A DNA stretch of 62,431 nt, the filler included, from Nitrospirae bacterium CG2_30_53_67 (GTDB lineage Bacteria; CG2-30-53-67), in NCBI GenBank assembly GCA_001873285.1. It is 4 parts of 4 records of this genome, joined end to end, with 100 filler letters (N's around TTAATTAATTAA, not from the genome) between each part and the next. Parts side by side here need not be neighbours in the genome. Positions count along the whole stretch, not along the records: positions 1 to 24,938 come from MNYV01000135.1; 3 more parts are not named here. The stretch is one strand, 5' to 3'. The number at the start of each line of letters is the position of its first letter. Position 1 is the stretch's first letter. Both the position numbers and the translations under genes were made by a program. The notes below the pieces were generated by a model, which searched no databases, was not told the DNA's origin, and saw nothing but the letters and a program-made list of their open reading frames with translations. Below, in pieces: positions 169-14,762 of this stretch.

Positions 169-537
169 TCACTCAGGACTCTGAAACACCTTGGAAATCG
201 TCTGCTTGATACTGGGGAGATTCAAGGGCTTGTCGAAAAACCCTAAAACCCCGAGTTCTTCAGCCCTTTGCCGAGCTTCCTGGGTCCCCCATGCGCTGAT
301 CATGAGAACCTTGGTATCCGGATATTGTTTTCTTATCTCTTCGAGCACATCGAGCCCGCTGATTCCGGGAAGACGGAGATCCAGGATCACGGCATGGGCC
401 GGGTCTTCGCGCATCCCTTCCAGGGCCTGCTCCCCGGAGTTGAAACAAATCACATCATATCCATCCTTGGTAAAGGTCTTGGAGAGGGTCCAGCAGATCA
501 GTTTCTCGTCATCCACGACCATAAGTTTTTTTTTCAA
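169..537 (-). CDS. Single-domain response regulator (receiver domain only)
   Basis: VVDDE, LDLRLPG, ISAWG and FDKP receiver motifs; ORF track start 630 overlaps the upstream gene, TTG at 537 with a GGGGGAAG RBS is more plausible. Confidence 0.85.
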   Translation of the reverse strand: MKKKLMVVDDEKLICWTLSKTFTKDGYDVICFNSGEQALEGMREDPAHAVILDLRLPGISGLDVLEEIRKQYPDTKVLMISAWGTQEARQRAEELGVLGFFDKPLNLPSIKQTISKVFQSPE

Positions 538-607
538 TGAATGGCTTCCCCCAAAATCATTTGAGAAACAATGACGATATCCATGCAAAGTCACGGACGC
601 CTGCCTG

Positions 608-1288
608 TTAAGAACCGGCAGGAACCTCAATGGATTCCAGTGTCTCCATCTCCATTCCCAGAAAAGCCTCTGTGAGCAGAGACATACCCGTCATAAAATC
701 ATTTTTTGTACGGGACCGGGCCATGGCGCACAACTCCGGGATCCACCGGATCATGTGATTCCGGATAAAGGCCTTCTCGAGGCAAAGGAGTTCCATGGCG
801 TTGTCAGTGTTATTTGCCTTCCACGCCTTTGTCTCTCTCTCACATAAAAAGTGCATGAAGGAGAACTCCAGACCGATAAAATCCGGAAGGTCTTTATAGT
901 CCTTATCCATTTCAGCGCCTGCCTTGTGATATTCGTCCTTCACACTGATCGTATACGGTCCCTGAAGGAGTCCAAGAACCTCTTGCCCGCCTTCTATGCT
1001 TCTTCCGCGATAGACATTCTCATAGGGGGTGAGATACCTTCCTGAAGGAACGATGAAGAGATGGGTATACTCCTGTTTGAGCGCATCAAAGTCCCATGCC
1101 CCGCCGGAGAGAAACCTCTGAAAAGGCGCCGTGACTTCCGGGCCGAAGATCTCTTCAAGGTTCCCGATAAAATCATCACTCAGGAACGTTTCAACCTGTT
1201 CTCTGGTAACGGCGCCGAGGTAGAACTCCGCCAGGAACCTGTAGAGTTCACACCTCGGGCCCGCCAGATCTTTGAGCGCTTCTCTCAT
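608..1288 (-). CDS. TorD/DmsD-family molybdoenzyme maturation chaperone
   Basis: EYTHLF, PYENVY, LPDFIGLEFSFM (PDH..LE-like) and FIRNHMIRW motifs; directly downstream of molybdoenzyme subunits. Confidence 0.9.
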   Translation of the reverse strand: MREALKDLAGPRCELYRFLAEFYLGAVTREQVETFLSDDFIGNLEEIFGPEVTAPFQRFLSGGAWDFDALKQEYTHLFIVPSGRYLTPYENVYRGRSIEGGQEVLGLLQGPYTISVKDEYHKAGAEMDKDYKDLPDFIGLEFSFMHFLCERETKAWKANNTDNAMELLCLEKAFIRNHMIRWIPELCAMARSRTKNDFMTGMSLLTEAFLGMEMETLESIEVPAGS

Positions 1289-1857
1289 TTGGCCGTGAAC
1301 TTTATACTGGGATTGGTATGGCCCGAGTTGTTGAACCCGGCCGGCGCATTCTGACCGGACTCGCTTGCACTGAACGAGTCAACCTTGGTCAAGGTCCTTC
1401 CCAGACAGGTACTCACGCAGGCAGGCGGGAGCCCTGCATCAATCCGATGGACACAGAAGGTGCACTTTTCCACCTTCTTGGTGGCGCTGTTGTACTGGGG
1501 CGCACCGTAGGGGCAGGCAAAGATGCAGTACTTGCACCCCACACACTTGTCCTGGTCAATGAGCACGATCCCGTCCGAGTCCCTCTTGGAGATCGCCCCC
1601 ACCGGACAGGATTTCAAACAGGCCGGATCCGCACAGTGGTTGCAGGACATGCTCACAAAATCCACGCTTACATCTGGATAGCTCCCCGACTCACGGGTGA
1701 AGACCCAGCGGTAGCTCACATGTTCGGGAATTCCGCCCTGGCTCACCGGCATGGGTGACTGCAGGGGCGCCGTCCGGTTTTCGGCCTTGCAGGCAATGGC
1801 GCAGCTCCCGCACCCCGTGCACTTTCCTAAATCTATGCTCCATCCAAGTTGAGACAT
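1285..1857 (-). CDS. Four-cluster [4Fe-4S] electron-transfer subunit (DmsB/TtrB/NrfC family)
   Basis: CTGCGSCAIAC, CNHCADPACLKSCP, CVGCKYCIFACP and CTFC...ACVSTC; no signal peptide of its own. Confidence 0.95.
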   Translation of the reverse strand: MSQLGWSIDLGKCTGCGSCAIACKAENRTAPLQSPMPVSQGGIPEHVSYRWVFTRESGSYPDVSVDFVSMSCNHCADPACLKSCPVGAISKRDSDGIVLIDQDKCVGCKYCIFACPYGAPQYNSATKKVEKCTFCVHRIDAGLPPACVSTCLGRTLTKVDSFSASESGQNAPAGFNNSGHTNPSIKFTAK

Positions 1858-1868
1858 TTTACACCTCC

Positions 1869-4800
1869 TTATGAAACCTTGGTTATTTTCACATACGTAT
1901 TAAAGTAGCAGACGCTCCCGCCGATCTTCTCCTGTAGGGGGACATTGGTGTAAACCTTGTCCAGCCGGGAGATCGGGTTGGTCTGTATCCCAGCGCCTCG
2001 CGTGGTATCGTGACCCAGGGCATCTGCCACGCCGTCCACGATGTGGGGTTTGGAGCCGAGCTGCCAGTGACCATAATGGTGCGAGACCCCGACCACACCA
2101 GGGCGGATCCGGTTCGTCACCCAGACCTTGCCGGTCACGCCGGCGCTGTTTGATGCCGAGGTCAGCCTGATCGTGTCCCCGGTCTCCACGCCGAGGGCCG
2201 CAGCATCAGAGGCGTTGATCCAGACGGCGTTCTCAGGCATGACCAGCATGAGCCACGGATTGACCGCAGTCCTGGCCTGTCCGTGGTTCACCAGCTTATA
2301 GGTATTGAGCAGGTAGGGGTAACTTCCCTTATCGTCGTGCACCGAGGTCCCGTCCGAATGCATCAGGTCCTCATAGTGCGGCACGCCGGAATAGTACGTG
2401 CCCGTCACCGAATCCGGAACTCTGACGATGGAATCCAGATAAAAGCGGATGGAGTTGGCATACTTGCTTGTGAGGTGGGCAGTCCCGCTCCCCAGGGGGC
2501 CGGCGCCGTACTCGGTATCCAGGGCCTTGAACACGCCTCCTTTGGCAATGATCTCATCCACGGTCAGGGTGGGATAATCACTGAGCGCGCTGTTCCGGAT
2601 GTTCCGGAGCATGGCATAGGCATAGTCCCAGACGTTGTTGAGATTGTCTCCATTGGTATAGGCGCTGTTCCCCACGGCCTTGATGAGCTTGCTCGCGCCG
2701 TCCACGGTGAAGCTCTTGCTCCCGTCATAGCCCAGGGCCTTGGCCAGCCCGATGTGGATATCCACCACGGCCTTGGTGTTGGGAAGGACCGGCGTATAAT
2801 CGTTGGCGCTTCCGGTCGGGATGGTGGCCCCGATCTCGGCGCCACCGATATCCTTGCCGTCGAACTTGCCCACCACGGGTCGTTGGAAGGACGTTCCCCC
2901 CTGCACCATCCAGGGGATGCCCGGCGTCGAAAACTTCTCCAGATAGGTGGAATCCGGGAGCACGTAGTCGGCCATGGCCGGCACTTCGCCCATGACCGGG
3001 CTGATGGAGACCAGCAACGGAAGCTTGTCGTAGTTGTCGGCCCCGCCGGAAAGGATAGTCCGCTCAAATGTAGCCTGAAGGCCGGGCGTGGAATAGGGCC
3101 AGGCGTTCCAGTAGGTAATCAGGACCTTCATACCGTAGGGGTACTGATCCTCAACGCTCGGAATCACCTCCTGATAGTTGCCATGGAGCCAGAAGGGCCC
3201 CCACATCCGGGTTGCCGGGTAGGTCCCGGTAAAAAGATCTGCCACATCCACGGCATCGTAGAACTTCCCCTTCCGGTCAATACCGATGCTGGAAGAGTAC
3301 GGAGAGTTGGTGACCGTCTCCACGGCCACAACCCCGGTTTTCTCGCCATAACTTGCGCCTCCCTTGGTGCATCCCCCGCGCCAGTCGTAATTGCCGATCA
3401 GGGAGTTCAGATGCTGGATGCAGACCTGGTTGAAAAGACCGTTGGTGTGCTTCACGGCCCCCCGGTAGGTGATGGCCACGGCCTTTTTCCCATGGCTCGT
3501 GAACTCCGTGGCCAGTTCAATGACGTCGGCCTCGGTCAGGCCGCAGATGCCCGCCCATTCGGCCAGGGTCTTGCTCATGGCCTGTGCCTTGAATAATGTG
3601 AAGGCGGACTTGACCGCAATCCCGTTGACCGTGGTATCCACTTCCAGGTCCCCCTCCACCACCGTGGAAGAATTTCCGGCAAACTCGTCCGTAGTTGCGG
3701 TGGAACCCGGGACGGTTGTGGCCGTGCCGCTCACCAGGACCACGTTCTCATGAGCGCCGCCGCCGAGGCCGGCCTCGCTTGCATTCAGATAGGTAGCGGG
3801 GCTCGAGCCGTACTTGACCAGGTAGGTCGCGTCGCTCCAGGTCCATTCATTGTCCGCATTGGCCGCGCCCTTGGTGGCATTTCCAAGATAGGTGGTGTCG
3901 TGAGCGCTGTTCTCGATGATCCATCTGGCCATGCCCAGGGCCAGGGCTGCGTCCTGCCCGGGCTTGATGGGATACCACTTGTCGGCCTGGGCCGCCGAGT
4001 TGGACATGCGGGGATCCACGACCACATATTTGGCCCCGCTGTTTCTTTTGGCCTCCACAAGTTTGCGGCCGTAGGGATTCATGGGGAAGCCGGCCTCAAA
4101 GGGATTGGTGCCGAAGAGAATAATGAATTCCGCTTCCCGAGTGTCCGGCTGCCAGCCTTCGGTCCTGCCCGATCCATACCTGTTCTTGCCTCCGCTCGAC
4201 TTGTACTGCCACGTGATGACCTCGTTTCCGACGTGCCGGGTCGCCTCGCAGATGCTCGTGTGGGTAAGGTCGTAGTTGACCGTGCCCCACCCCGACTTCC
4301 AGATCCTCGAGCTCAGGGTTTTTTCAGTGCTCCTGCCCGGGCAGAAGCCCAGCATGTTCGCGTTTTTCCCCTTCTTGGTGTTGCTGGGATCCATGTAGTC
4401 ATAGCGAGTGGCCGCCGGGATCAGGGCATCAATCTTGGCCGCAATCTCGGAGAAGGCCGTATCCCAGGAGATGGCCTCCCACTCCCCTGCTCCTCTCTCG
4501 GTCCCCGGTTTTCTCCGCAACGGCTGTTTAATCCGGTAGGGATCGTACACGGTCTGAATCCCGGACTGTCCCTTGAGGCAAAGCCGTCCGGGTGTCACGT
4601 CCGCGGTTGAGGTGGCGGTGGTGTAGTCAAGCCTTTCATCGGGTTCCAGGTTGTTCGGATGATAGGGATTGCCGTCGATCTTGAGCAGGACCCCGTCCTT
4701 GACCCGTGCCTGGATGCCGCATCGGGAATGGCACATCTGACAGACGCTCCGAATCACATAGACGCCGGAATCGTATTCCGTGGCATTCGGGTCATTCTGT

Positions 4801-4949
4801 CCGTAGGTCGCGGCCAGGGCTTCATTTTGTTTGAAGAGGCTCGATCCAACCGCGGCGCCTGCGGCCAGTGCGGCGCCGGCCTTGATAAATTTTCTTCGTT
4901 CAATGGATGGATTGAGCCATCCTTTGAGTTGATCGGTCTTGCTCGCCAT
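1869..4949 (-). CDS. Mo/W-bisPGD oxidoreductase catalytic subunit, TtrA/SrdA-like, TAT-exported
   Basis: TAT motif ERRKFIK with ALA-A cleavage site; FS0 motif CQMCHSRC...RLCLKG; KIDGNPYHP; putative Cys Mo ligand in HTSICE; ADYVLPDSTYLE; C-terminal VSHHYGHW; 1026 aa. Confidence 0.9.
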   Translation of the reverse strand: MASKTDQLKGWLNPSIERRKFIKAGAALAAGAAVGSSLFKQNEALAATYGQNDPNATEYDSGVYVIRSVCQMCHSRCGIQARVKDGVLLKIDGNPYHPNNLEPDERLDYTTATSTADVTPGRLCLKGQSGIQTVYDPYRIKQPLRRKPGTERGAGEWEAISWDTAFSEIAAKIDALIPAATRYDYMDPSNTKKGKNANMLGFCPGRSTEKTLSSRIWKSGWGTVNYDLTHTSICEATRHVGNEVITWQYKSSGGKNRYGSGRTEGWQPDTREAEFIILFGTNPFEAGFPMNPYGRKLVEAKRNSGAKYVVVDPRMSNSAAQADKWYPIKPGQDAALALGMARWIIENSAHDTTYLGNATKGAANADNEWTWSDATYLVKYGSSPATYLNASEAGLGGGAHENVVLVSGTATTVPGSTATTDEFAGNSSTVVEGDLEVDTTVNGIAVKSAFTLFKAQAMSKTLAEWAGICGLTEADVIELATEFTSHGKKAVAITYRGAVKHTNGLFNQVCIQHLNSLIGNYDWRGGCTKGGASYGEKTGVVAVETVTNSPYSSSIGIDRKGKFYDAVDVADLFTGTYPATRMWGPFWLHGNYQEVIPSVEDQYPYGMKVLITYWNAWPYSTPGLQATFERTILSGGADNYDKLPLLVSISPVMGEVPAMADYVLPDSTYLEKFSTPGIPWMVQGGTSFQRPVVGKFDGKDIGGAEIGATIPTGSANDYTPVLPNTKAVVDIHIGLAKALGYDGSKSFTVDGASKLIKAVGNSAYTNGDNLNNVWDYAYAMLRNIRNSALSDYPTLTVDEIIAKGGVFKALDTEYGAGPLGSGTAHLTSKYANSIRFYLDSIVRVPDSVTGTYYSGVPHYEDLMHSDGTSVHDDKGSYPYLLNTYKLVNHGQARTAVNPWLMLVMPENAVWINASDAAALGVETGDTIRLTSASNSAGVTGKVWVTNRIRPGVVGVSHHYGHWQLGSKPHIVDGVADALGHDTTRGAGIQTNPISRLDKVYTNVPLQEKIGGSVCYFNTYVKITKVS

Positions 4950-4989
4950 AGGATTCTCCTTTCATTACGATAGCTGTAGGATTAAATTT

Positions 4990-5481
4990 TTATTGTGCGT
5001 AAAATTCAATGTCCGTGCCCGAACCATGGCATAACAGGCATTTGGATGTGCTGTACTTCTGGCGAAGCTGACCATTACCCCCGCTGCTCTGATATCCGGC
5101 CTGTATGGACGTCTCCAGAACAATATGTTCGTGGCACCAGACACACTTGGCATTCGTGGTGCTGCCCGAGGCCCAGGGCATCATGGCCGCATGCGCGTCG
5201 GCCCGTCCGTCCGTGGCGGTTCCCGAAGACTTGTTCCCGTGGCAGCTCACGCAGTCGCTGTTGTAGGAAGCGCTGCCGCTGTCGTGCACCGCAACCAGAT
5301 TGGTGGAGAGGGCATCGGCAAGATTCTGATCAATAGCCGCCTGGTCAGATGGGCTGACCGCACTCCCCGTGGCCGGGGCGCTGCCGCCTCCTCCGCCGCC
5401 CCCGGAACACCCTGCAAGGGCCAGCATGACAGTAACACTCGTGCAAAACATGAATCGTGAAACCTGTTTCTTCACTTGCAT
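4990..5481 (-). CDS. Triheme c-type cytochrome lipoprotein
   Basis: Lipobox LAG-C followed by a Gly/Ser/Ala linker; three CxxCH motifs (CVSCH, CVWCH, CLLCH). Confidence 0.85.
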   Translation of the reverse strand: MQVKKQVSRFMFCTSVTVMLALAGCSGGGGGGGSAPATGSAVSPSDQAAIDQNLADALSTNLVAVHDSGSASYNSDCVSCHGNKSSGTATDGRADAHAAMMPWASGSTTNAKCVWCHEHIVLETSIQAGYQSSGGNGQLRQKYSTSKCLLCHGSGTDIEFYAQ

Positions 5482-5506
5482 AATCGGCTCCTTTCTGCTT
5501 AAAAAG

Positions 5507-7618
5507 CTAAAACTTTAATTTATAAGTCAGGCTGACCGTCTCATTGCGTCCGCCCTGGCCGGATTCAATATCGTCATCATAGTCCTCATGCAGGTATCCC
5601 AGTGTCACATCCGAGCGGTCCGAAACGATCAGATTGAGCCCCAGGTTCACATTCTGATACTGGTTGTCGATCTTGGTCAAGGCGCCCAGATCGGTGGTTC
5701 CTGACTGGATTCTGCTCCGTGAATTTGAAAGTAGAAAGGAAATTAGAAGGTTGGCCTTGGGATTCAACTGATAGCTTGCGCCGAGGGTATAGGTATCACT
5801 GTAACTCTGAAATCCGAGGGCATCCTCCTGCATCACAAAGGTATTCAATGCCGACCAGCGGGTCTTGTCTGAAAGAAGCCAGTTGGCATCTTGAAGGAGC
5901 GCATCCCGCATATAAGCGGCAAAAAGATTCAGGTCATCTCTGACCTGCCACCACCCGTCAAGACTGATGCTGCGGTGACGCGACTCCCAGTCCTGGTCCA
6001 CGGAGTTGGACGCGTTCTTGTCGAGATTCGTGCCGGCGGTGCCGAACCAGGTGAAGTTGTCATTCTTCTGCTTCCCTTCGGTGTAGGAAGCGGAGACAGC
6101 GGCCCGGCCTTTGAGCAGGGAGTAGTCGGCCATGATCCGGCCGTTCCAGGACTTGTCCGGCTCCAGGATCAGGGCCGTATCACCCGCATCTTCATAGGAT
6201 GCAGAAGCCGTGATCAGAAGATCGGAGTAGAGACGGCTGTAGAGGCTCGCCGAATAGATCCATCGGTCCGAATCAATACTGTACGGGCTGGAAAAAGATG
6301 CGATGGCTGCACTGCCGGTCGGTCTCTGAAACTCCCGATCCGTCTGGTCCCTGCGGCCTGAAAGGCGGACCACCGTGTTGTAACGGTCCATACGGTAGGT
6401 CGCGTCGCCGCCGTATTTCCTGCTGGTGATCTCGGCCACGTGCGGGTCGCTGACATTGGAGTCCAGGTCCTTGTATCCGGAAGTCCCCGCCTGCGAGCTG
6501 TTCTCCCGCTGGTTGTAATGGTAAAATCCTGTAAGATCCGTATTCCGTATCCCGGTATAGGTGGCGGATGCAAGGAGTGTGGTCAACTTGATCTCCCCGT
6601 TGTAACCGGCGGCGTCTTGCAGGGCATTGTAGGATTCCTGGTCCAGGTCCGCATAACGGATGCCGAACCGGTAGGAAAGCGAGTCATTCAGGCGGTCCAC
6701 AAGATCCAGAGAGTAGGCATCCTTCTCCGATTCGGGGACAAAATCAATGGACTTGGCCGATGACACCATATTGGAATCGAGGGCCGCCGCATCGGCTAAG
6801 GTGTAGAGGTCATCGGTCTGGAAATTTTCCCTCTGGGCATTGAGAAAAACCCTGAGGTCGTCTTCCCTGACCGGGCCGATATTGAGCTCGGTCCCGATAT
6901 TCACAACCCGGCTGTCAAAGGGTTCGGCGCGGCCCCGCCATCGGGAAGAGATACCGGACGCCGAAACATCGCTCCCATCCAGAATATAGGTCAGGAACTT
7001 CCGGCCCCGCTTGTCCTCGTTGTTGACCCAGACATTCACGGAATTGAGAAGACCCCCCTCGGTCCCTCCCCAGACACTGGAATTCAGCATCATGGAAAGA
7101 TCGGTCTTGCTCCGCTCCACAAAAAACTCGGATGTGGAAGCGTCATTGTTGAACTGAGCCGTGTAGTTGCTCCCCGCAAGACCTGTGGTGATCGGGGCAT
7201 ACTCATCCATGTTCTTTCGGTAGCGCATGTAATCGAGATCAATCTTTACCCCTTCCGCCGGATCCACGGCCAGGAGCATCCGGTCATTTTTGAGCCAGGG
7301 GGCAAAGCGCTGGAGATGGAAGGAAGGATATTCGGCTCCGTTTTTCCGGATCATGAGATCAAGGTTCGGGACATTGAGCCGGTTGTATTTTTCTTCTTCG
7401 GGATAATACTGGTAACGGCTCAGGAAACCGGACGTGCTCGTATCCCCGTTCCGGTCATAGTACTGATCGTCCACCGTGACACTCCCCTGAGCTTCGTACT
7501 TACCGATGTCCGCTGCATAAACAGGGATAGAGAAGAGTCTCATGACAAAAAGCAGGACCAAGGCCCTCCGGGTTCCACTCATCAAGCGATTCATCCATTG
7601 ATTCCATTCCTTGTTCAT
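5507..7618 (-). CDS. Outer-membrane beta-barrel, MtrB/PioB/DmsF-like
   Basis: Sec signal (VYA-A); 703 aa; alternating beta-strand pattern rich in Tyr/Asp/Ser; C-terminal LTYKLKF beta-signal; directly downstream of a decaheme cytochrome. Confidence 0.85.
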   Translation of the reverse strand: MNKEWNQWMNRLMSGTRRALVLLFVMRLFSIPVYAADIGKYEAQGSVTVDDQYYDRNGDTSTSGFLSRYQYYPEEEKYNRLNVPNLDLMIRKNGAEYPSFHLQRFAPWLKNDRMLLAVDPAEGVKIDLDYMRYRKNMDEYAPITTGLAGSNYTAQFNNDASTSEFFVERSKTDLSMMLNSSVWGGTEGGLLNSVNVWVNNEDKRGRKFLTYILDGSDVSASGISSRWRGRAEPFDSRVVNIGTELNIGPVREDDLRVFLNAQRENFQTDDLYTLADAAALDSNMVSSAKSIDFVPESEKDAYSLDLVDRLNDSLSYRFGIRYADLDQESYNALQDAAGYNGEIKLTTLLASATYTGIRNTDLTGFYHYNQRENSSQAGTSGYKDLDSNVSDPHVAEITSRKYGGDATYRMDRYNTVVRLSGRRDQTDREFQRPTGSAAIASFSSPYSIDSDRWIYSASLYSRLYSDLLITASASYEDAGDTALILEPDKSWNGRIMADYSLLKGRAAVSASYTEGKQKNDNFTWFGTAGTNLDKNASNSVDQDWESRHRSISLDGWWQVRDDLNLFAAYMRDALLQDANWLLSDKTRWSALNTFVMQEDALGFQSYSDTYTLGASYQLNPKANLLISFLLSNSRSRIQSGTTDLGALTKIDNQYQNVNLGLNLIVSDRSDVTLGYLHEDYDDDIESGQGGRNETVSLTYKLKF

Positions 7619-7660
7619 CTATGAACCCCCTTTCTTGAAATCGAGAGTATATTTAATAAA

Positions 7661-7800
7661 GGTTCTTCTCCCATTTAGTGGGTAAAAAGGGTTACGCGAA
7701 TAGGACCCTCGGCCCCTTATGTTTTGAGCACTTCACTTGACCCCTGGAATCCTTGACCCCTTGACCCCTGATGTTTTCACCCACTCTTTTGAGATGATCC
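7661..7800. mobile_element. MITE-like dispersed repeat
   Basis: Imperfect terminal inverted repeats GGTTCTTCTCCCATTTAGTGGGTAAAA and TTTTCACCCACTCTTTTGAGATGATCC; internal TTGACCCC octamers; about 75 bp closely match 57441-57515 in reverse orientation. Confidence 0.65.
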
Positions 7801-7804
7801 ATAA

Positions 7805-8692
7805 TTAATACCTCAGATGCCGGTCCTGATGCGTCCCGTGCTGGGCGCCGTGGCACCCCGTGCATTTCCTGTAGATGGATGCCGCAGGCGTGGCCGCGCC
7901 CGTAGCCGAAGTCCCGTGCTTGGCGGCGGCGAGACTGTGGCAGCGTATACAGGCAAAAGGTTCCGCCACTTTCAAAAGACCCGGATTCACGGTCCCGTGC
8001 GGATTGTGGCAGATGGTGCAGTCCTCGGTGACCGGCGCATGTTCATAGGTCCATGGGCCCTGCTGTTCCTGGTGACAGCCTCCGCACCGTTCGCTCATCC
8101 CGACCAAGGCCAAGGCCTTATCTTCATGGGGATTGTGGCAGTCGGTGCAGGCCATGACCCCTTCCCTCATGGGATGATGATAAGGCATGTTCATCTGGGC
8201 CTTCTTTTCCGTATGGCAGGTCACGCATTTTTCGGTGATGCGGGAATTCCGGAGCCGGTCGCTCTTGACCAGCGCCGGGTCGTCTCCGTGCGGTGCATGG
8301 CAGTCAAAACAGGCGAGCCCCGCCTTCTTATGGCTGCTCGTGTGCCATCCGGTCAGCTTGCTGTTTTGTTTCTGATGGCAGGAGAGGCAGATCTCCGGCG
8401 ACGGGAAGGAGATGGTCTCCCTTCCGGGATTTTCCACATGCCTGCTCCCGAGTCCGTGGCAGCCTTCACAATTCTGATGGGAGGCAAGCGTCTTCATCTT
8501 CTCATGGCACGAAGCGCACTGTTCCGCACCCACGGCCGAGGCCCCCTCCACCTGGTTCCACACGGTCCTCGCCATGGGTTTGTCCGCGGACATGGCCGGC
8601 CTTTCAAGCGTGAATTGAACGGCCAGCACAAAAAACAGGATCAATAAAATATCCAGAAGGAGAATAAAGACATACCCGCTGCTTTTTTTCAT
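7805..8692 (-). CDS. Decaheme c-type cytochrome, DmsE/MtrA/PioA family
   Basis: Ten CxxCH motifs (CASCH, CEGCH, CLSCH, CFDCH, CVTCH, CTDCH, CGGCH, CTICH, CIRCH, CTGCH); family-typical HHPMREG and GPWTYEHAPVTEDC; N-terminal hydrophobic segment. Confidence 0.92.
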   Translation of the reverse strand: MKKSSGYVFILLLDILLILFFVLAVQFTLERPAMSADKPMARTVWNQVEGASAVGAEQCASCHEKMKTLASHQNCEGCHGLGSRHVENPGRETISFPSPEICLSCHQKQNSKLTGWHTSSHKKAGLACFDCHAPHGDDPALVKSDRLRNSRITEKCVTCHTEKKAQMNMPYHHPMREGVMACTDCHNPHEDKALALVGMSERCGGCHQEQQGPWTYEHAPVTEDCTICHNPHGTVNPGLLKVAEPFACIRCHSLAAAKHGTSATGAATPAASIYRKCTGCHGAQHGTHQDRHLRY

Positions 8693-8894
8693 TTCGCCCC
8701 CCTTATCTTGAATGACTGAACATGGATCGCATACCGGGAAATGTTTTGAAACTTTTGAAAATCTTTTTATTTACAGTTTATATGGACCGACTTTTAAGAT
8801 GAAACAGATCGGAAAATTACCTGATGAATTGCTTTGTGATCCGCTTCTCAGGTTCAGACCGCGAACAAAACGCAATAACATCATCGTTGGACAG

Positions 8895-8911
8895 TGCAGA
8901 TTTCATGCCAA
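8895..8911 (-). promoter_or_regulatory. Sigma54 (-24/-12) promoter of the cytochrome-porin-molybdoenzyme operon
   Basis: Minus strand TTGGCATGAAATCTGCA = GG-N10-GC, close to TGGCACG-N4-TTGCW; adjacent sigma54 activator gene. Confidence 0.8.
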
Positions 8912-8950
8912 AACAGCCTGCTCTGATTTTTTAGGAAAACTTTAGAAAGG

Positions 8951-8963
8951 AATCAACAACTTG
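8951..8963 (+). promoter_or_regulatory. IHF binding site
   Basis: AATCAACAACTTG matches WATCAANNNNTTR exactly and lies between the sigma54 promoter and the candidate enhancers. Confidence 0.65.
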
Positions 8964-9007
8964 AGAGAAGAAGACTTATAGCGCACTGACGATATGACAT
9001 TGAAAAA

Positions 9008-9058
9008 TGTACAGTTTGTATACAGAAGGCCGCCCTGTTCCTGTAAAGTTTATGCGCA
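9008..9058. promoter_or_regulatory. Two candidate upstream activator sequences for the NtrC-type regulator
   Basis: Related 17-bp imperfect palindromes TGTACAGTTTGTATACA (9008-9024) and TGTAAAGTTTATGCGCA (9042-9058), 34 bp apart and about 100-150 bp upstream of the -24 box. Confidence 0.5.
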
Positions 9059-9090
9059 TTGAACGGCCTATGTATGTATATATCCTTTGC

Positions 9091-9891
9091 CTATTTCCCT
9101 TGTTTTTCCTGGGAGATATTCTTGAGTTCGCCATTGATGACCTCCTGGTCCGCAAGACGCTTAGCTTTCTTGGCCGATTCATAGGACTCGTCCACCAGTT
9201 TCAGTATTTCATGAAAATCAAAGGAGTGCCATTTGATTTCTGCGAGCCTAAACTTCTCCTCTGCATCCTTAAGCGCTGCGGCCGCGTCAGTCACGGGATA
9301 CCCTTTTTTCCTGGCAAGGGTGACAAACTCTCCGCTCCATTTGACCGTGTTCTTGGCATAGAAGATCAGGTCGAGTGTGGCGTGGGCCTCCTCCGGCACG
9401 CTGGAAGAAAGGCCGCTCTTCGTGTTGTGACAACGGCGGCAGGCGTCGGCCACGTTTTCCGGGGAGAGGATGGCGGTATGCATGGAGCCGTGGCAGGTGA
9501 TGCAGGTCGGCCCGGGCACTTCTACGTTACCGGATAGGAGGGCCTTGTAATGCCTGCTCCGGGTAAATTCCTTCCACTGCGGCTGATGGCATTCGCCGCA
9601 GAGACCGGGTATGTTGGAGCCATGGACCCGGCTTCTCGGATCGGCCGGGCGCAATACGCCGGCATGGGCCTTATCGAGTCGGATATCAGCCGGGTTCCCT
9701 CCATGACAACGGTCGCAGGTCACACCGGCCTTGTCGTGCACCGAGTCCTTCCAGTTATAAAAAGCCTTACCTTCGACTTTGTTCTGCGGCAGGGTCGCGT
9801 GGCAAGCGATGCAGGAATTCCCCTCTGCGGATGCCGGCAGAATCAGGCAGATACAAAACAGCATCTCGGAAAATGAACGTAATGTGGACAT
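9091..9891 (-). CDS. Periplasmic pentaheme c-type cytochrome with helical C-terminal domain
   Basis: Signal peptide (ASA-E); five CxxCH motifs (CIACH, CDRCH, CGECH, CITCH, CRRCH); start moved to ATG 9891 after GGAGG. Confidence 0.85.
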   Translation of the reverse strand: MSTLRSFSEMLFCICLILPASAEGNSCIACHATLPQNKVEGKAFYNWKDSVHDKAGVTCDRCHGGNPADIRLDKAHAGVLRPADPRSRVHGSNIPGLCGECHQPQWKEFTRSRHYKALLSGNVEVPGPTCITCHGSMHTAILSPENVADACRRCHNTKSGLSSSVPEEAHATLDLIFYAKNTVKWSGEFVTLARKKGYPVTDAAAALKDAEEKFRLAEIKWHSFDFHEILKLVDESYESAKKAKRLADQEVINGELKNISQEKQGK

Positions 9892-9904
9892 GCCGCCTCC
9901 TTTT

Positions 9905-11311
9905 TCAGATCTCGAAATCACTGATCTTCTTCCTGAGCGTGGTCCTCGTGATCCCGAGAAGTTTGGCCGCCTGAACCTGATTCCCTTGTGAGATCTCCAT
10001 GGCCTTCCGGATCAGAATCTTTTCCACGTTCCCGATGATGGTTTCATAAGGCGCCCGTGAGCAATCCATGCAGCGATTGAGGGCATTCTCGACCATGAAG
10101 GAGAACCCCTTGAGGAAATCCCCTTCCCCATGGATATGCATGGGGATCTCTTCCTTGAAGAGGTCCAGGGAGAGGTAGTCGTATTTGCACATGACCATGG
10201 CCTTCTTCATGGTGTTCTCCAGCTCGCGGACGTTTCCGGGCCAGTCGTAGCTCTGCAGATACTCGACCAGTCCGGTCTCAAACCCCTGAATCCTGAGGCC
10301 GAGGGCGGCATTAAACCGCTGAATGAAATATTCCAGAAAAGCCGGCATATCATCCCTATGGTCTCGAAGCGGAGGGACACGAACGGCCACCACGTTCAGC
10401 CGGTGAAACAAGTCCTGCCGGAACCGGCCCTCCTTTATATGTTTCTCCAGATGCTTGTTGGTCGCGGCCAGGATCCGCGCGTCCGAATGAAGGGTCTCTG
10501 TGCCGCCCAGCCGCTGAAAGCTTCCATCCTGCAGCACGCGCAGAACCTTGGACTGGGTGGCAAGTGACATGTCTCCGATCTCATCAAGAAAAAGAGTCCC
10601 CCCTGCGGCCTGCTCAAACTTCCCCGGTTTTCCCGTGCTGTCTGCGCCGGTGAATGTGCCTTTCTCATATCCGAAGAGTTCACTCTCCAGCAGGTTCTCC
10701 GGAATTGCTGCACAGTTCACAGCCACGAAAGGCCTCTCCGTGCGGAGACTGTACCGGTGCAGGGTCCTCGCGATCAGGTCCTTGCCGGTCCCGGACTCTC
10801 CAAGGATCAGGACGGTGATATCGGACTTGGCCACTTGTCCGATGAGTTTATAGATCTCCACCATCAAGGAGCTGTTTCCGATAAGCCGCTCTTCTGTAAG
10901 CCGGTCATCCTCGGAGACCCGCTCGATCCCGGAGCTTTTCATCAGGCGGCCGGCCTTGAGCGCCCGCTCGATAACCTGGCGCACGGCGGCGATGTCCAGG
11001 GGCTTGGTGAGATAGTCAAAGGCCCCGGCCTCAATGGATAAAATGGCCTTGTCCGTGTCGCCGAAGGCCGTAATCAGGACCACGGGAAGATCCGGCTTGA
11101 ATTCCCTGATCTGTTTCAGGGTCTCCAGGCCGTCCATGCCCGGCAGTTTCAGATCCAGGAGGATCAGATCCGGGGCCGAGTCCCGGACCCTCTCCACGGC
11201 CTGCTCTCCATCCTCGGCCGTGAAGATCTCATACTCCCTGAAAAAGATCTTTTTCAGAAAGTGCCTGACACCCGGCTCATCATCAACAATCAGTATCCTA
11301 TCCATAGTCAC
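9905..11311 (-). CDS. Sigma54-dependent response regulator (NtrC family)
   Basis: Receiver domain; GESGTGKD; ESELFGYEKGTFTGA (GAFTGA variant); LFLDEIGD; WPGNVRELEN; Fis-type HTH. Confidence 0.95.
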   Translation of the reverse strand: MTMDRILIVDDEPGVRHFLKKIFFREYEIFTAEDGEQAVERVRDSAPDLILLDLKLPGMDGLETLKQIREFKPDLPVVLITAFGDTDKAILSIEAGAFDYLTKPLDIAAVRQVIERALKAGRLMKSSGIERVSEDDRLTEERLIGNSSLMVEIYKLIGQVAKSDITVLILGESGTGKDLIARTLHRYSLRTERPFVAVNCAAIPENLLESELFGYEKGTFTGADSTGKPGKFEQAAGGTLFLDEIGDMSLATQSKVLRVLQDGSFQRLGGTETLHSDARILAATNKHLEKHIKEGRFRQDLFHRLNVVAVRVPPLRDHRDDMPAFLEYFIQRFNAALGLRIQGFETGLVEYLQSYDWPGNVRELENTMKKAMVMCKYDYLSLDLFKEEIPMHIHGEGDFLKGFSFMVENALNRCMDCSRAPYETIIGNVEKILIRKAMEISQGNQVQAAKLLGITRTTLRKKISDFEI

Positions 11312-11317
11312 TCATCG

Positions 11318-12781
11318 TTAAACCGGAAGTAGAATGGAGAAGATCGTCCCCTTCTCCTTTTTGTCCTTGAGCGAAATCTCTCCCCCGTGTTCCTGAATGA
11401 TTTGATACACGATGGATAACCCCAGCCCCGTGCCCTTCTTCCGGGTGGTATAAAAGGGCTCAAAAAGATGTTCCCGAATCGTTTCATCTATGCCCTCTCC
11501 GGTATCCTCGATATCAATCTCCACATCCTCCTCGGAACCGTTTATCGAGGTCCGAATTCGGATCTCCCCGCCATCGGGCATGGCCTGAATGGCATTCAGG
11601 CAGAGATTCCCCACGGCTTCCTCCATCTTCCGCCGATCCACAAAGACCAGGGGAAGGTCTACAGCCGGGAAAAATTTCAGGCGGATACGGGCCGTCTCCA
11701 TCCTGGGGCGGTATTTGCCTGTCACCTCTTCGAGGAATGCGTTGATGTCCACGGGACTGAGATGGATCCTGGGAGGGGCCGCATAGACAAGGAAACGGCT
11801 GATGATCTCATCCATTCTCTGAACATCGTTCAATACCATTTCCCGTTCCTCCATGTCCAGCACGCCGGACGAACCGGGCTCATTCATGGCCTGGATGCAG
11901 AGTTTGATGGAGGTAAGGGGGTTCTTCAGCTCATGGGCCAGGTTGGCCGAAAATTTTCCTATGGCGTTTAGTTTCTCGCTCCGGATCAGTTTCTCCTGTG
12001 TCCGTTGCACCCGTTCAAAGGCCTCCTTGAGTTTTACGGACATTTCGTTGAAGGTCCCGGCCAGTTCGGCGGTCTCGTCCCGGCCCTTCACCTGGATCTG
12101 AGTCCCCCATTTCCCCTTTCCGATATTCTTCGCGCCCCGGATCACATGCAGGAGAGGAAGGATGTACCGCCGGGTCATCAAGAGGCTGACCAGGACCCCC
12201 AGCATAGTCAAAAAGGCCGCCATCCCCCATAACTCTCTTTTAAGGGACCGAACCTGCTTGAGATGGTACGCCCGGGTGATCCCGATCCGCACGTATCCGA
12301 CCTGCATGGTGTTGACCACGATCGGGGTGATGACCTCAAAAATGATCGAGGTCTTCGGGAGGATCAGCGCTTCTTTGCCCGACCAATCAAATCCTGACGG
12401 ATCTTCAAGCTCTTTCCGGTATAGATCCTTGCCCACAAAGGCCAGGAGTTTTTCTTCACGGCCGTAAACGGCGGCATATTCCACAATGCCCTCCTCGGAT
12501 TCCGGCGCCTTCTCTTCTTTTTTTATTTTAAAGACATCGAGGAGCCTGTAGAGGGCGAACAGATCCTCGTAGAGGAGGGGCTCCACGGCCTGGTGCGAGA
12601 GAGCCCTGGCAAGATAGACGCCGCGTTTTCTAAGCTCCGCCTCGGATTCCTTCTCGATATGATTGAAAAAAAATAAACTCAGAACGAAGATCAGGAAAAG
12701 AATCAGGAGGATGCTGGTCACCGACACCTTGAAGGCGAGACTTAAGTACCATCGTGTTTTGAAACGCGCAACTGATTCCAT
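11318..12781 (-). CDS. Membrane sensor histidine kinase (periplasmic domain, HAMP, HisKA, HATPase)
   Basis: Two TM segments; HAMP; AHELKNPL; NAIQA; DTGEGI; FEPFYTT; GTGLGL. Confidence 0.95.
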   Translation of the reverse strand: MESVARFKTRWYLSLAFKVSVTSILLILFLIFVLSLFFFNHIEKESEAELRKRGVYLARALSHQAVEPLLYEDLFALYRLLDVFKIKKEEKAPESEEGIVEYAAVYGREEKLLAFVGKDLYRKELEDPSGFDWSGKEALILPKTSIIFEVITPIVVNTMQVGYVRIGITRAYHLKQVRSLKRELWGMAAFLTMLGVLVSLLMTRRYILPLLHVIRGAKNIGKGKWGTQIQVKGRDETAELAGTFNEMSVKLKEAFERVQRTQEKLIRSEKLNAIGKFSANLAHELKNPLTSIKLCIQAMNEPGSSGVLDMEEREMVLNDVQRMDEIISRFLVYAAPPRIHLSPVDINAFLEEVTGKYRPRMETARIRLKFFPAVDLPLVFVDRRKMEEAVGNLCLNAIQAMPDGGEIRIRTSINGSEEDVEIDIEDTGEGIDETIREHLFEPFYTTRKKGTGLGLSIVYQIIQEHGGEISLKDKKEKGTIFSILLPV

Positions 12782-12792
12782 GGTCCGTCATT

Positions 12793-13713
12793 TCACCTGT
12801 CCGGCAGCCATGATGTCTTCCTGGAGGCCTTTAGAAAATTTTCCATCTCCCGGACCGAATCATAGAGACCAGCGGAAGGCTCCACAAACCGGTCTATCTT
12901 GAGATTTTTCAAGATCTTCTTCCCTTCGGGATCCTGGTCCATGCCGAACAGGATCGCCTGAAACCTCTCCCTGAACGGCTTGGCGGTCTTTGGAGAGACC
13001 ACCACCGGCGGCATGCCGAAAGGCTGGGAGGAAAGAATCACACGCGTCTTCTCCACGCTAAGGTCATTTCTCTCCTTGAGAGAGTCGTAAACCAGGCTGT
13101 CCACGGCCGCCCCGTCCGCGATCCCACGCGCCACGGCTTCAATGGATTTGTCATGACTATGGGTGTAAAAAAAATAAGAGAAAAACTGCTCCGGTATGGC
13201 CCCCTCTTTGCGGATCAGATATTCAGGGTAGAGGGCGCCGGTATTGGAGAGATCATCGGTATAGGCGAAGATCCTCCCCCTAAGATCATCGAAGGTCTTG
13301 ATGGGGCTCTCTTTGGCAACGATGATATAGGATTGATAGGTATCCTTTCCATAAATAATGGGGATAGCCGCCACAGGGAGCTTGAAATTCTGTTCCGCTC
13401 GGAGGTAGGCTCCCGTACAGATAAAGGCGTAGTCCACGGCGCCCAACTCAAGAAGATCGTTCACCTCCTGATAGGTCCGTCTCTGTTTCAGGACGACCCG
13501 TTGACCGAACTTCTTGGATAGATAGTCCAGGAAATCCTGATAATAGGAAAACGTCTTCTCCGGGGAAATCATAGCCGAGATGGCAAAACTGATTTCCTGC
13601 TTCTCATCCCCGATCGGAGTCGAGGACAAGCTTTTTTCCTCACCCGCCCACCCCGGAGGAGCAATCAGGAATAAAAAAAACACAAGACAGACGGCCCAAA
13701 GATACTGCTTCAT
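12793..13713 (-). CDS. PhnD-fold periplasmic binding protein, AioX/ArxX-like, with no ABC permease
   Basis: QRRTYQEVNDLL, AFICTGAY, SNTG, SHDKSIEAVA and ADGAAVDS motifs; directly upstream of the kinase; start re-called at MKQYLW (signal peptide). Confidence 0.8.
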   Translation of the reverse strand: MKQYLWAVCLVFFLFLIAPPGWAGEEKSLSSTPIGDEKQEISFAISAMISPEKTFSYYQDFLDYLSKKFGQRVVLKQRRTYQEVNDLLELGAVDYAFICTGAYLRAEQNFKLPVAAIPIIYGKDTYQSYIIVAKESPIKTFDDLRGRIFAYTDDLSNTGALYPEYLIRKEGAIPEQFFSYFFYTHSHDKSIEAVARGIADGAAVDSLVYDSLKERNDLSVEKTRVILSSQPFGMPPVVVSPKTAKPFRERFQAILFGMDQDPEGKKILKNLKIDRFVEPSAGLYDSVREMENFLKASRKTSWLPDR

Positions 13714-13823
13714 TTTATACCCGATCCCATAAAGGCGCGTCCGTTCATCCTTCGCATCAAAGACCTCCCCCTCCATGAAGGTTTTCATCATATCATCTTG
13801 AAATCGGCTTGGCAATAAACTTA

Positions 13824-14762
13824 TCAGGCAAAAAACTGCCGGATGTACCCCTGTGCCACAAAAAGCGTTGCGGCCCCGATCAGCCCCTTGATGAACCTGT
13901 CGGGCATATGCTTCTGTAGCCGCGCCCCCAGGTACATCCCGGCCAGACCGCCCGCGCCGAAAAGCGCGCCGAGGAGCCAGTCCGGCGAGGTGGAGAGACC
14001 CTGAGGCCCCGGGAGGATACTGTAAAAGCCGACCCCGGCAATGGAGGAGAGGAACGTTCCCATGAGTGACGCGCCCGCCACGGTATAGACCGGCAGGTGG
14101 AAAACTGCGACGCAGAAGGGGGCGATGATGGCCCCGCCGCCCACGCCGTAGGTCCCGCCGATGATCCCGACCACAAAGGCGAGAAGAAACATGGCCTGTG
14201 TCCCGAAGGAATATCTTCTTCCCTGAAATTCATATTCGGTCTTTTTCCAGGATATGGAGATGTTGCCGACCATGGACCCGTTGAGGTTTCCATTCACTCC
14301 CATGGGATGATTCGGATTTTTTGGAGATATCCCTTTGGCAATTACCTGATAGAGAAGCCTGACGGCCAGATACAAAAGGACACATCCCACAAAGAACTTG
14401 AAACCTCTCGGGTCCGGGAGGAAATAAACCCGGAGGTAATACCCGATGACAATCCCCGGAAGCGTCCCTAAGATAATTGTCCAGGTCAGCGGCCAGACCA
14501 TGCGCCCCTCTTTGATATACCGGTAGACACCGCTGGGGATGGCCACAATGTTGAAGACGAAATTGGTGGCGCTCACGGCCGGACTGACAAAATGCAGAAC
14601 ACTCATCTGGAAAGGGAGAATCAGAAATGCCCCGGAAACCCCGCCCATGGAAGCAAAGAAGGAGATGACAAAAGCCACTGCAGGAGGGAGCAGAAGCGAG
14701 GTCGTGACTCCGGACACCGGAAAGTGATAGACGAAAAGATTCAGGATATTATAATCGCTCAT
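13824..14762 (-). CDS. TauE/SafE (TSUP) family sulfite/sulfur-compound transporter
   Basis: About 8 TM helices; SMGGVSGAFL and GIIGGTYGVGGGAIIAP repeat motifs. Confidence 0.88.
   Translation of the reverse strand: MSDYNILNLFVYHFPVSGVTTSLLLPPAVAFVISFFASMGGVSGAFLILPFQMSVLHFVSPAVSATNFVFNIVAIPSGVYRYIKEGRMVWPLTWTIILGTLPGIVIGYYLRVYFLPDPRGFKFFVGCVLLYLAVRLLYQVIAKGISPKNPNHPMGVNGNLNGSMVGNISISWKKTEYEFQGRRYSFGTQAMFLLAFVVGIIGGTYGVGGGAIIAPFCVAVFHLPVYTVAGASLMGTFLSSIAGVGFYSILPGPQGLSTSPDWLLGALFGAGGLAGMYLGARLQKHMPDRFIKGLIGAATLFVAQGYIRQFFA

Follow-up and report, generated by a model that had tools for sequence, protein, structure and literature searches.

The locus

We analysed a 62,431-nucleotide stretch of DNA from Nitrospirae bacterium CG2_30_53_67 (hereafter the window), and within it an operon that places genes for a porin-cytochrome conduit beside those for a molybdoenzyme resembling tetrathionate reductase (Ttr). 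The operon lies on contig C19 (MNYV01000135.1; positions 1-24938 of the window), from a 2.37-Mb, 183-contig, 95%-complete metagenome-assembled genome (MAG; genome G000). We suggest, tentatively, that it may encode an arsenate reductase working at the cell surface.

Twelve closely packed genes occupy the minus strand from 169 to 14762 (Table 1). Six of them, spanning 608-8692, had been identified in a preliminary description as a minus-strand operon of decaheme cytochrome, outer-membrane barrel, triheme lipoprotein, molybdoenzyme, iron-sulfur (FeS) subunit and chaperone; all six open reading frames (ORFs) are intact and lie where they had been placed, the chaperone and FeS genes overlapping at their ends. 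The range given there proved too narrow, as it omitted the pentaheme, regulator, kinase and binding-protein genes that lie upstream on the same strand and belong to the same unit.

Table 1. Genes and putative promoter of the operon region, in window coordinates.
Feature	Position	Strand	Evidence
Receiver-domain protein, stand-alone	169-630	-	Response_reg 88 bits; overlaps TorD-like gene by 23 nt
TorD/NarJ-type maturation chaperone	608-1288	-	PF02613 89.4 bits; TIGR03482 43 bits, below cut-off
Four-cluster [4Fe-4S] electron-transfer subunit	1285-1857	-	190 aa; Fer4_11 105 bits
Catalytic Mo/W-bisPGD subunit (molybdenum or tungsten held by two pyranopterin guanine dinucleotides), Ttr-like group A	1869-4949	-	1026 aa; Pfam Molybdopterin, Molydop_binding, Molybdop_Fe4S4, TAT_signal
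Triheme c-type cytochrome lipoprotein	4990-5481	-	163 aa; LAGC lipobox, three CXXCH
MtrB/PioB-like outer-membrane beta-barrel	5507-7618	-	703 aa; signal peptide; AlphaFold2 and Foldseek
MtrA/DmsE-like periplasmic decaheme cytochrome	7805-8692	-	295 aa; ten CXXCH
Putative sigma-54 (-24/-12) promoter, TGGCAT-N5-CTGCA	8895-8910	-	Pattern match
Secreted pentaheme c-type cytochrome	9091-9921	-	276 aa; five CXXCH; Cytochrome_C7 38.6 bits
NtrC/AtoC-type sigma-54-dependent response regulator	9905-11311	-	Response_reg; Sigma54_activat 232.9 bits; HTH_8
Membrane sensor histidine kinase, HAMP-HisKA-HATPase	11318-12781	-	Pfam; best NCBIfam model AtoS 231.9 bits, below cut-off
Periplasmic oxyanion-binding sensor, AioX/ArxX/ArrX subfamily (predicted)	12793-13815	-	PDB sequence matches
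TauE/SafE-family anion exporter	13824-14762	-	PF01925 134 bits; ends 8 nt before sensor gene

No NrfD, DmsC or NapC-type gene was found among the ORFs scanned on the contig C19 part of the window. Window position 1 is the start of the contig, and only the receiver gene lies between the TorD-like gene and the contig end; because the operon runs into the assembly edge, the window alone cannot prove the absence of a downstream anchor gene. The same operon is present in a sister genome, G004 (locus L095, contig C46); a receiver gene, moaA, moeA and a gene for ACR3 come after it there, and none for NrfD. The receiver ORF stands directly after the chaperone gene in each (L095 7836-8219, minus strand); it may serve as a second output, or as a phosphate sink, of the arsenic-type sensor system encoded upstream.

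A decaheme-barrel conduit

With the DmsE family model TIGR03508 the decaheme cytochrome reaches 189.9 bits, 2.3 bits under the cut-off of 192.2, and its G004 orthologue, at 195.2 bits, lies over it. Against the PDB it matches chain A of 6r2q (E 1.3e-37), an entry titled 'Structure of the Mtr complex'; we take this chain, labelled 'Cystathionine beta-synthase' in the search output, to be MtrA. The gene is the sole DmsE/MtrA-type match at E <= 1e-10 in its 95%-complete genome, which argues that the conduit is dedicated to this operon.

The barrel protein has no Pfam match of its own, and reaches only 21.5 bits on TIGR03509, below the Pfam and NCBIfam cut-offs. Its relatives number 34 among 1.84 billion representative proteins, and 13 of 30 match PF11854 (MtrB_PioB). 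The AlphaFold2 model is all-beta, with a mean predicted local distance difference test (pLDDT) score of 85 and a predicted template-modelling (pTM) score of 0.78, and its top Foldseek match is MtrB (6r2q_B; E 1.6e-20, TM 0.68/0.73). TonB-dependent receptors, a fold that the preliminary description had said would refute its reading, align at TM 0.30-0.43, and we rejected them. As judged from the modelled fold, the 703-aa protein is an MtrB-like barrel. Within the small phylum to which the organism belongs, the barrel occurs in two of 14 genomes, G000 and G004. The locus encodes no MtrC-like surface decaheme. A complex prediction with barrel residues 36-703, decaheme residues 70-295 and triheme residues 60-163, run without controls, scored 0.00, which weighs neither for nor against a complex. 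By eye, we also saw three direct copies of GGGGTCAAG at about 7735-7770 (minus strand), in the decaheme-barrel spacer; at 186 nt this spacer is the largest gap within the operon.

A Ttr-like catalytic subunit

In the catalytic subunit a twin-arginine leader (RRKF) precedes an N-terminal Fe4S4 domain, and Cys234, the predicted metal ligand, lies in an HTSICE motif. Its best NCBIfam model is TtrA (NF011567; 306.8 bits against a cut-off of 1750), followed by PhsA, and the TtrA alignment is near full length (residues 65-996 to model positions 73-992). It scores 149.4 bits on the ArrA model (cut-off 1600), 173.5 on dmsA_ynfE (cut-off 777.7) and 109.7 on the DmsA model PRK14990 (cut-off 1600); together with the Cys ligand, these scores bear out the earlier view that the enzyme is not a DmsA. 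The closest PDB sequence matches are PsrA (2vpw; 4.4e-33) and ArrA (6cz7; 1.4e-32). Other catalytic members of the two groups defined below score 361-568 bits on the TtrA model, also under 1750.

The FeS subunit has 16 Cys in four cluster motifs (counted in the translation) and no signal peptide, and scores 154.7 bits on the DmsB model (cut-off 214.1) and 123.7 on the TtrB model (cut-off 416). It begins MSQLGWSIDLGKC, with no twin-arginine leader, and is presumably exported together with the catalytic subunit, which carries a leader for the twin-arginine translocation (TAT) pathway.

A clade with a small cytochrome in place of NrfD

We compared the operon with 79 loci: 78 from a one-genome-per-species scan, all of them MAG records, and the sister-genome locus L095. 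Loci were annotated by phmmer and hmmsearch over six-frame ORFs, and a FastTree tree of 65 rows (the window and 64 loci; Shimodaira-Hasegawa-like support, midpoint root) was built after leaving out 15 loci with an enzyme ORF shorter than 850 aa. Two fragmentary loci are unclear; the remainder fall into two groups by gene order and in the tree. Group A, with 63 loci and containing the window, has the order small cytochrome, molybdoenzyme catalytic subunit, FeS subunit, chaperone, the TorD-like gene following the FeS gene in most loci. Its hosts span many phyla. NrfD is adjacent in none of the 63 and lies elsewhere in the locus in five, in agreement with the earlier expectation that homologous operons of this enzyme's clade would lack an NrfD anchor. 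Group B, with 14 loci, has the order FeS subunit, NrfD, catalytic subunit and forms a single clade with support 99; NrfD is adjacent in ten of the 11 loci with enough flank, and no small cytochrome precedes the enzyme in any of these 11. Group B hosts include Dehalococcoidia, Actinomycetota, Bacillota, Methanoperedens and others. This distribution suggests that the small cytochrome replaces NrfD in group A. Beyond these loci, metagenomic relatives of the enzyme are numerous (hundreds of proteins, at about 50-54% identity), under source names such as 'tetrathionate reductase subunit A' and 'anaerobic selenocysteine-containing dehydrogenase'.

The small cytochrome is the triheme protein of the window, which has a glycine-rich linker besides its lipobox and heme motifs. 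Of the 51 group A loci whose flank extends to 600 bp or more, 50 have a homologue immediately upstream of the catalytic gene; the exception, L044, has a two-heme ORF in that position. These proteins share a core of about 95 residues with invariant H66, H97, Y161 and three CXXCH motifs and a nearly invariant M100, carried on N-terminal tethers that vary widely. The AlphaFold2 model of the triheme reached a pLDDT of 68, heme-free models of small cytochromes being unreliable, and this model gave no Foldseek match against the PDB and nothing at Z >= 2 in a wide VIA-align search. The triheme also has a weak Pfam match to MtrC domains II/IV (32.1 bits). We rejected this as a sign of surface location because the decaheme and other cytochromes match the same model at similar scores.

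Recurrent conduits and exchange of the catalytic module

To score conduits in relatives we required a ten-heme cytochrome followed by an ORF of 600-780 aa, both before the small-cytochrome gene, in loci whose upstream flank reached 4.5 kb or more. Besides the window, an MtrAB-type pair is present in eight of 35 group A loci with enough flank: L017 (Desulfurellales), L021 (Myxococcales), L028, L032, L042 and L062 (Thermoanaerobaculia), L044 (Ozemobacteraceae) and L095 (G004). The barrels are backed by PF11854 in L017 (370 bits) and L021 (359 bits), by 64% identity to the window barrel in G004, and by hhalign in the Thermoanaerobaculia (97% probability over 510 columns); the large ORF of L044 is not confirmed as a barrel. 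The nine conduit-bearing enzymes occupy six separate places in the tree, several of them early-branching, a scatter compatible either with an ancient association that was lost several times or with recurrent recruitment.

Four Planctomycetota loci carry something different in the same position: an ORF of 436-491 aa that has a signal peptide and ends in Phe, then a lipoprotein cytochrome with 12-13 hemes (L027 7058-9475; L029 808-3281; L033 3267-5743; L041 7430-9557). Evidence that this ORF is a barrel is weak, comprising a BBP2_2 match at E 5e-4 in one of the four, an Atlas neighbour annotated 'Beta-barrel porin 2 family' (0.98), and an hhalign probability of 78% confined to the last 85 columns. 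We regard the pair as a lead: this enzyme family may have a second porin-cytochrome arrangement, unlike the first. In L038, L049 and L060 a seven-to-ten-heme cytochrome and a large ORF lie downstream instead.

Could conduit and enzyme be mere neighbours, with no electron-transfer link between them? The conduit is missing from most relatives; we nevertheless consider this explanation highly improbable. The order decaheme, barrel, enzyme is common to nine genomes from at least five phyla, the gaps between these genes in the window are short (11 to 186 nt) or the genes overlap, one sigma-54 promoter match stands ahead of the set, the genome has no second decaheme of this kind, and in Planctomycetota a second putative porin-cytochrome type has taken the same position.

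G000 and G004 represent two genera of one family, and comparison of their operons (window 608-8692 with L095 8239-16371) reveals unequal divergence. Identity is 75% for the decaheme and 64% for the barrel, and lower for the other components, at 58% for the FeS subunit, 44% for the triheme, 38% for the catalytic subunit and 34% for the chaperone; the two catalytic subunits lie in different subclades of the tree. Shared conduits with catalytic subunits from different subclades indicate that the catalytic module has been exchanged on a conserved conduit.

Predicted sensor, regulator and promoter

The binding protein matches ArrX (6x6b; 3.1e-49, 171 bits) and AioX (6esk; 6.3e-40, 141 bits), which are sensors of arsenate and arsenite, respectively. 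Its matches to PtxB (2.7e-18) and PhnD (6.6e-07) are far weaker. The pocket of the AioX subfamily is described as Tyr88, Cys106, Tyr131, Ser161, Ser163, His192 and Asp210 in AioX numbering, and Cys106 as missing from PhnD (Badilla et al., PMC5908839). Six of these seven residues are identical in the window protein (Tyr, Cys, Tyr, Ser, His and Asp), with Ser163 replaced by Thr, and the protein aligns to ArrX through a short loop that differs in AioX. Among 22 binding proteins compared, from the window and 21 loci, all keep the pocket and 21 have the ArrX-like loop. We therefore predict an oxyanion sensor of the AioX/ArxX/ArrX subfamily. The remaining protein, from the alphaproteobacterial locus L022 (5858-6703, minus strand), has an AioX-like loop and pocket flanks, unlike the other 21, and the enzyme family may thus hold both sensor types.

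With either strand counted, the -24/-12 pattern TGGCAYNNNNNYTGCW matches the 62,431-base window once, at 8895-8910, about 200 nt before the start codon of the decaheme gene. The number expected per window is 0.21, and at least one match arose in 19 of 100 shuffles. The strict sigma-54 pattern was absent upstream of the decaheme genes in the eight other conduit loci.

The pentaheme gene, which lies between the sigma-54 regulator gene and this putative promoter, shares 17 nt with the end of the regulator gene and is presumably co-transcribed with the regulators. The C-terminus of its product is a helical region of about 100 aa without heme. The pentaheme could be a periplasmic relay to the decaheme. 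No counterpart turned up in the 78 scanned loci, save that a larger multiheme ORF in L063 matched in part, at 51 bits.

Proposed mechanism

We propose the following scheme, by homology and from the features described above. The periplasmic ArrX-like protein would sense arsenate and signal through the kinase to the sigma-54 regulator, which would fire the -24/-12 promoter before the decaheme gene. The TorD-like chaperone would help load the cofactor into the Ttr-like catalytic subunit, which would then be exported by the TAT pathway together with the signal-less FeS subunit. The triheme, taking the place of the quinol-oxidising NrfD anchor, would be the enzyme's dedicated point of electron entry, connected to an MtrA-like decaheme threaded through the MtrB-like barrel. 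Electrons would leave the quinol pool via an inner-membrane dehydrogenase encoded elsewhere, and pass through periplasmic cytochromes, the pentaheme being a candidate, to the decaheme-barrel pair and across the outer membrane. At the surface, the assembly of triheme, FeS subunit and molybdoenzyme would reduce arsenate, mineral-bound arsenate included, to arsenite, which would stay outside the cell.

Taken in full, as an arsenic-induced module of DmsEFAB type with its enzyme on the outer face, this is the reading we prefer, and by analogy with that system we give it a little under an even chance. That a Ttr-like arsenate reductase is docked by its triheme at the mouth of an MtrAB-type conduit, in a family wired to conduits repeatedly (the MtrAB type in five phyla, an unrelated putative porin in Planctomycetota) and with catalytic modules swapped as between G000 and G004, we hold more tentatively still. 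Substrate, direction and location each have their own rivals, and the observations that weigh against an extracellular arsenate reductase are given with them below.

Substrate

The substrate is very likely an oxyanion of arsenic or one closely similar to it, for instance antimonate, as judged from gene content and motifs. The preliminary description had allowed any sulfur, selenium or arsenic oxyanion; its arsenic part gains support, and we narrow the range to arsenic because of the ArrX/AioX-type sensor, the flanking ars genes and a Gly-Arg motif in the catalytic subunit. In 16 of 63 group A and five of 14 group B loci the flanks contain a gene for an ArrX-like binding protein (no flank-length filter was applied). 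ACR3, thioredoxin-type ArsC, ArsA or ArsD is encoded within 10 kb in 13 of 63 group A and two of 14 group B loci (15/79), and three of the loci so flanked carry a conduit (L044, L042 and L095). Four of six ACR3 proteins tested exceed the NCBIfam equivalog cut-off (L044, L095, L041 and L022), those of L018 and L056 falling just under it; three ArsC-like proteins tested scored 124-165 bits, below their cut-off of 174.3. The window's own genome has an ACR3-like gene on another contig (L096; G000:C166 935-2011; 262 bits, cut-off 282.8); two small ORFs come before it, and this may be a separate ars operon.

Gly-Arg is reported as present in Arr, Arx and Ttr-like arsenate reductases and absent from true Ttr (PMC12949373). 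In the window enzyme G205-R206 is located 28 residues before Cys234; the spacing from R206 to the Cys equals that in PsrA between the residue aligned to R206 and the PsrA Cys ligand (counted in the alignment), and Gly-Arg is present in all 66 readable catalytic sequences of both groups. A phmmer alignment to ArrA, on the other side, sets G194-K195 rather than G205-R206 opposite the Gly-Arg of ArrA; the equivalence is therefore not settled, and rests on the spacing and the PsrA alignment. Ttr homologues of Anaeromyxobacter PSR-1 and Geobacter OR-1 are described as induced under As(V) respiration and able to reduce As(V) (PMC11462812), and a Pyrobaculum homologue is described as an arsenate reductase (PMC11462812, PMC12949373, PMC10100899). 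Two published candidates for a similar role proved to be something else: the 'alternative arsenite oxidation' enzyme of Thioalkalivibrio corresponds to the unrelated SoeABC (PMC6620896), and the Arr/Arx enzymes of Methanoperedens are described as canonical RGRY-motif enzymes with NrfD (PMC13685797).

A decidedly improbable alternative, in our judgement, is a substrate other than arsenic, detected by an ArrX-like sensor of different specificity: an oxyanion of sulfur, selenium or antimony, or some further one, for example tetrathionate, thiosulfate, polysulfide or selenate. It draws on the ranking of family models, with TtrA first and PhsA second, on the reported catalytic versatility of the TtrA/SrdA/alternative-ArrA family (PMC10100899), and on the statement that pocket residues alone do not fix ligand selectivity in this sensor family (PMC5908839). 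Moreover, the 14 loci closest to the window enzyme (L001-L015, L054) have neither ars nor ArrX-like genes in the flanks examined, and a gene for a TauE/SafE-type anion exporter adjoins the sensor gene. The TtrA score nevertheless lies far below its cut-off, and true Ttr is described by features that do not match here, namely the order ttrBCA, a TtrB with its own TAT leader and a TtrC of nine helices (PMC12949373); the Gly-Arg, the Cys-containing sensor pocket and the flanking ars genes argue for arsenic. The TauE/SafE-family protein could export an oxyanion product, and has a weak counterpart (24 bits) in L059.

Direction

The enzyme probably works as a reductase, on the strength of its sensor, relatives and partners. 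Its sensor is closer to ArrX, and the NrfD-anchored group B uses sensors of that type as well. As partner cytochromes it has MtrA-type multihemes, and the Ttr-like family members whose activity is reported are all reductases in the accounts concerned (PMC11462812, PMC12949373).

The converse would be a third kind of arsenite oxidase, in which arsenite would give up electrons by way of the FeS subunit and the small cytochrome to cytochromes of c type and, in this organism, onward through the decaheme to an extracellular acceptor such as Mn(IV) or Fe(III) oxides. Several observations fit such an enzyme and so tell against reduction. The window regulator is of the AioR/ArxR (arsenite oxidase) type and not of the ArrR type. 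The electron partner is a cytochrome, as it is for Aio, and not a quinone-reactive NrfD subunit. The nearly invariant Met100 of the small cytochrome probably provides one His/Met heme. In the closest clade (L002, L009-L011, L015 and L054) the small cytochrome is fused to a class-I-like monoheme domain, with the fourth heme in this C-terminal domain (CxxCH ... GGMGPL), which suggests coupling to a soluble or higher-potential cytochrome c pool. Hosts, many of which do not respire anaerobically and among them aerobes, nitrite oxidisers and phototrophs, include NC10, Nitrospinota and Chromatiaceae, not known as arsenate respirers, and the binding protein of L022 is AioX-like. Even so, we judge an arsenite oxidase improbable. 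The window binding protein is nearer ArrX than AioX by score and shares the short ArrX loop, as do the group B sensors; oxidation through an MtrA-type decaheme, a low-potential wire, would run uphill; and electrons dumped outside would conserve no energy. Reported activities in the Ttr-like family are also reductive (PMC11462812, PMC12949373). The regulator comparison itself follows Badilla et al. (PMC5908839), who describe AioR and ArxR as sigma-54-dependent and ArrR as not of that type.

Location

We favour a surface enzyme because, as we infer, only an outward-wired terminal reductase would conserve energy, and because the gene order is that of dmsEFAB. By analogy, reduction outside the cell would keep arsenite out and reach sorbed arsenate.

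Rather unlikely, in our view, is a periplasmic arsenate reductase that the decaheme-barrel pair links to the outside. Such a link could serve electron uptake from extracellular donors (Fe(II) minerals, partner cells or cathodes), as in MtoAB and PioAB, or parallel electron export, the exported electrons dissolving arsenic-bearing iron oxides and so releasing substrate. The conduit-less unit of small cytochrome, catalytic subunit, FeS subunit and chaperone is the common form: 27 of the 35 group A loci lack an MtrAB-type pair, which implies that in those relatives the enzyme works in the periplasm, and makes the conduit an accessory feature, though one recurring in six places in the tree. This result goes largely against the preliminary description, which had counted on homologous operons keeping the decaheme/porin pair. 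A lipobox is missing from the small cytochrome of the four Thermoanaerobaculia loci that carry a conduit, and in four NC10 loci without a conduit the protein is a lipoprotein; a lipid anchor thus does not track the conduit. The MtoAB and PioAB conduits end in periplasmic carriers, and the conduit here, with no MtrC-like surface decaheme encoded at the locus, resembles them. Dedicated secretion genes were not among the operon ORFs scanned. Crossing the outer membrane would need type II secretion, of which we found secretins and a weak GspL match (29.9 bits) in G000 and G004; these count for a surface enzyme by their presence and against it by their scarcity. The T2SSK family search carries no weight, as its control fired in ten of 14 genomes. 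On the other side, electron uptake to a periplasmic enzyme would conserve no energy, as both half-reactions would then lie outside the inner membrane; a conduit would be superfluous if the quinol pool already fed the enzyme; and dmsEFAB, the only characterised operon of decaheme, barrel and molybdoenzyme, is described as acting extracellularly (PMC9732548).

One further point bears on an extracellular arsenate reductase as a whole: all the group A relatives found are MAGs or uncultured organisms, one of them named Candidatus Scalindua japonica. A search for a cultured relative (for example in Anaeromyxobacter) with the L036 enzyme returned only the names of uncultured organisms.

Relation to known systems

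The closest architectural parallel is the DmsEFAB(GH) system of Shewanella, which acts on dimethyl sulfoxide (DMSO) or iodate and likewise has an MtrA-type decaheme, an MtrB-type barrel, a TAT-exported bisPGD subunit, an FeS subunit and a chaperone (PMC9732548, PMC11302344). Gene order is the same in both, from decaheme and barrel to catalytic subunit, FeS subunit and chaperone, with no NrfD or DmsC anchor, so that the DmsEFAB-like architecture proposed earlier is borne out. In contrast to DmsEFAB, the catalytic subunit of the window is Cys-ligated and Ttr-like instead of a Ser-ligated DmsA, a conserved triheme gene is inserted between the barrel and enzyme genes, and control appears to fall to an arsenic-type three-component sensor with sigma-54. 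DmsEFAB is a surface system; for its window counterpart that location is a prediction.

With the Ttr-like arsenate reductases of PSR-1, OR-1 and Pyrobaculum aerophilum the window enzyme shares a subunit of about 1000 residues, the Gly-Arg, and an association with arsenic genes and sensors (PMC11462812, PMC12949373, PMC10100899). Unlike those enzymes, as far as published descriptions allow the comparison, it has a c-type cytochrome in place of the membrane subunit and an attached outer-membrane conduit. Ttr-like arsenate reductases as such are already published (PMC11462812, PMC12949373).

The TtrBCA enzymes of Salmonella and Shewanella are related through TtrA, which gives the best NCBIfam model and a near full-length alignment. 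They differ in that the window has the order cytochrome-A-B-D and not B-C-A, no TtrC on its contig part, an FeS subunit without a TAT leader, a TtrA score of 307 against 1750, and the Gly-Arg described as absent from true Ttr (PMC12949373).

As in the AioXSR, ArxXSR and ArrXSR systems, genes for a separate AioX-subfamily binding protein, a kinase and a regulator lie beside those for a molybdoenzyme, and the regulator, like AioR and ArxR, is an AAA+ sigma-54 activator with a putative -24/-12 promoter. The window departs from all three by pairing an ArrX-nearest binding protein with an arsenite-oxidase-type regulator, and the enzyme under its presumed control is neither Aio, Arx nor canonical Arr.

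MtrCAB, MtoAB and PioAB share the conduit, the decaheme matching 6r2q chain A and the barrel 6r2q_B; the window differs in having no MtrC-type surface decaheme, the partner being a molybdoenzyme with a triheme adaptor.

We found no published description of a porin-cytochrome conduit joined to a molybdoenzyme other than DmsA, nor of the cytochrome-coupled Ttr-like clade, in a search largely limited to openly available journals and to main texts. If enzyme and conduit are wired together as proposed, DmsEFAB would no longer be the only known kind of molybdoenzyme with a porin-cytochrome conduit attached, and this one would be the second. To our knowledge, the respiratory arsenate reductases known so far are periplasmic and fed from the quinol pool via ArrC or CymA. 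Aquifer sediments hold most of their arsenate bound to iron minerals, and the arsenic that they release is a major concern for water quality; an extracellular enzyme would allow aquifer bacteria to respire mineral-sorbed arsenate while excluding arsenite, and would offer a testable route to solid-phase arsenate, or to arsenic redox coupled to extracellular donors or acceptors. The comparison also defines a widespread uncultured clade, with 63 loci and hundreds of metagenomic proteins, by a diagnostic gene order and a conserved small-cytochrome subunit. Surveys with arrA, aioA and arxA as markers probably miss it, because the window enzyme reaches 149 bits on the ArrA model against a cut-off of 1600.

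Other features of the window

A scan for sigma-70 promoters and terminators gave no enrichment. Sequencing runs listed as holding this DNA, all 24 of them marked as possible sources, are of aquifer or groundwater DNA, with no RNA run listed. Positions 24939-62431 of the window lie off contig C19, and the type IV pilus and restriction genes there are not proven neighbours of the operon. From 16497 to 27164 there is a dense run of restriction-modification genes, for an SNF2 helicase, several N6/N4 methylases, SfiI-like and EcoRV-like endonucleases and a Dam-type methylase, followed by a phage-type integrase gene at 27273-28406.

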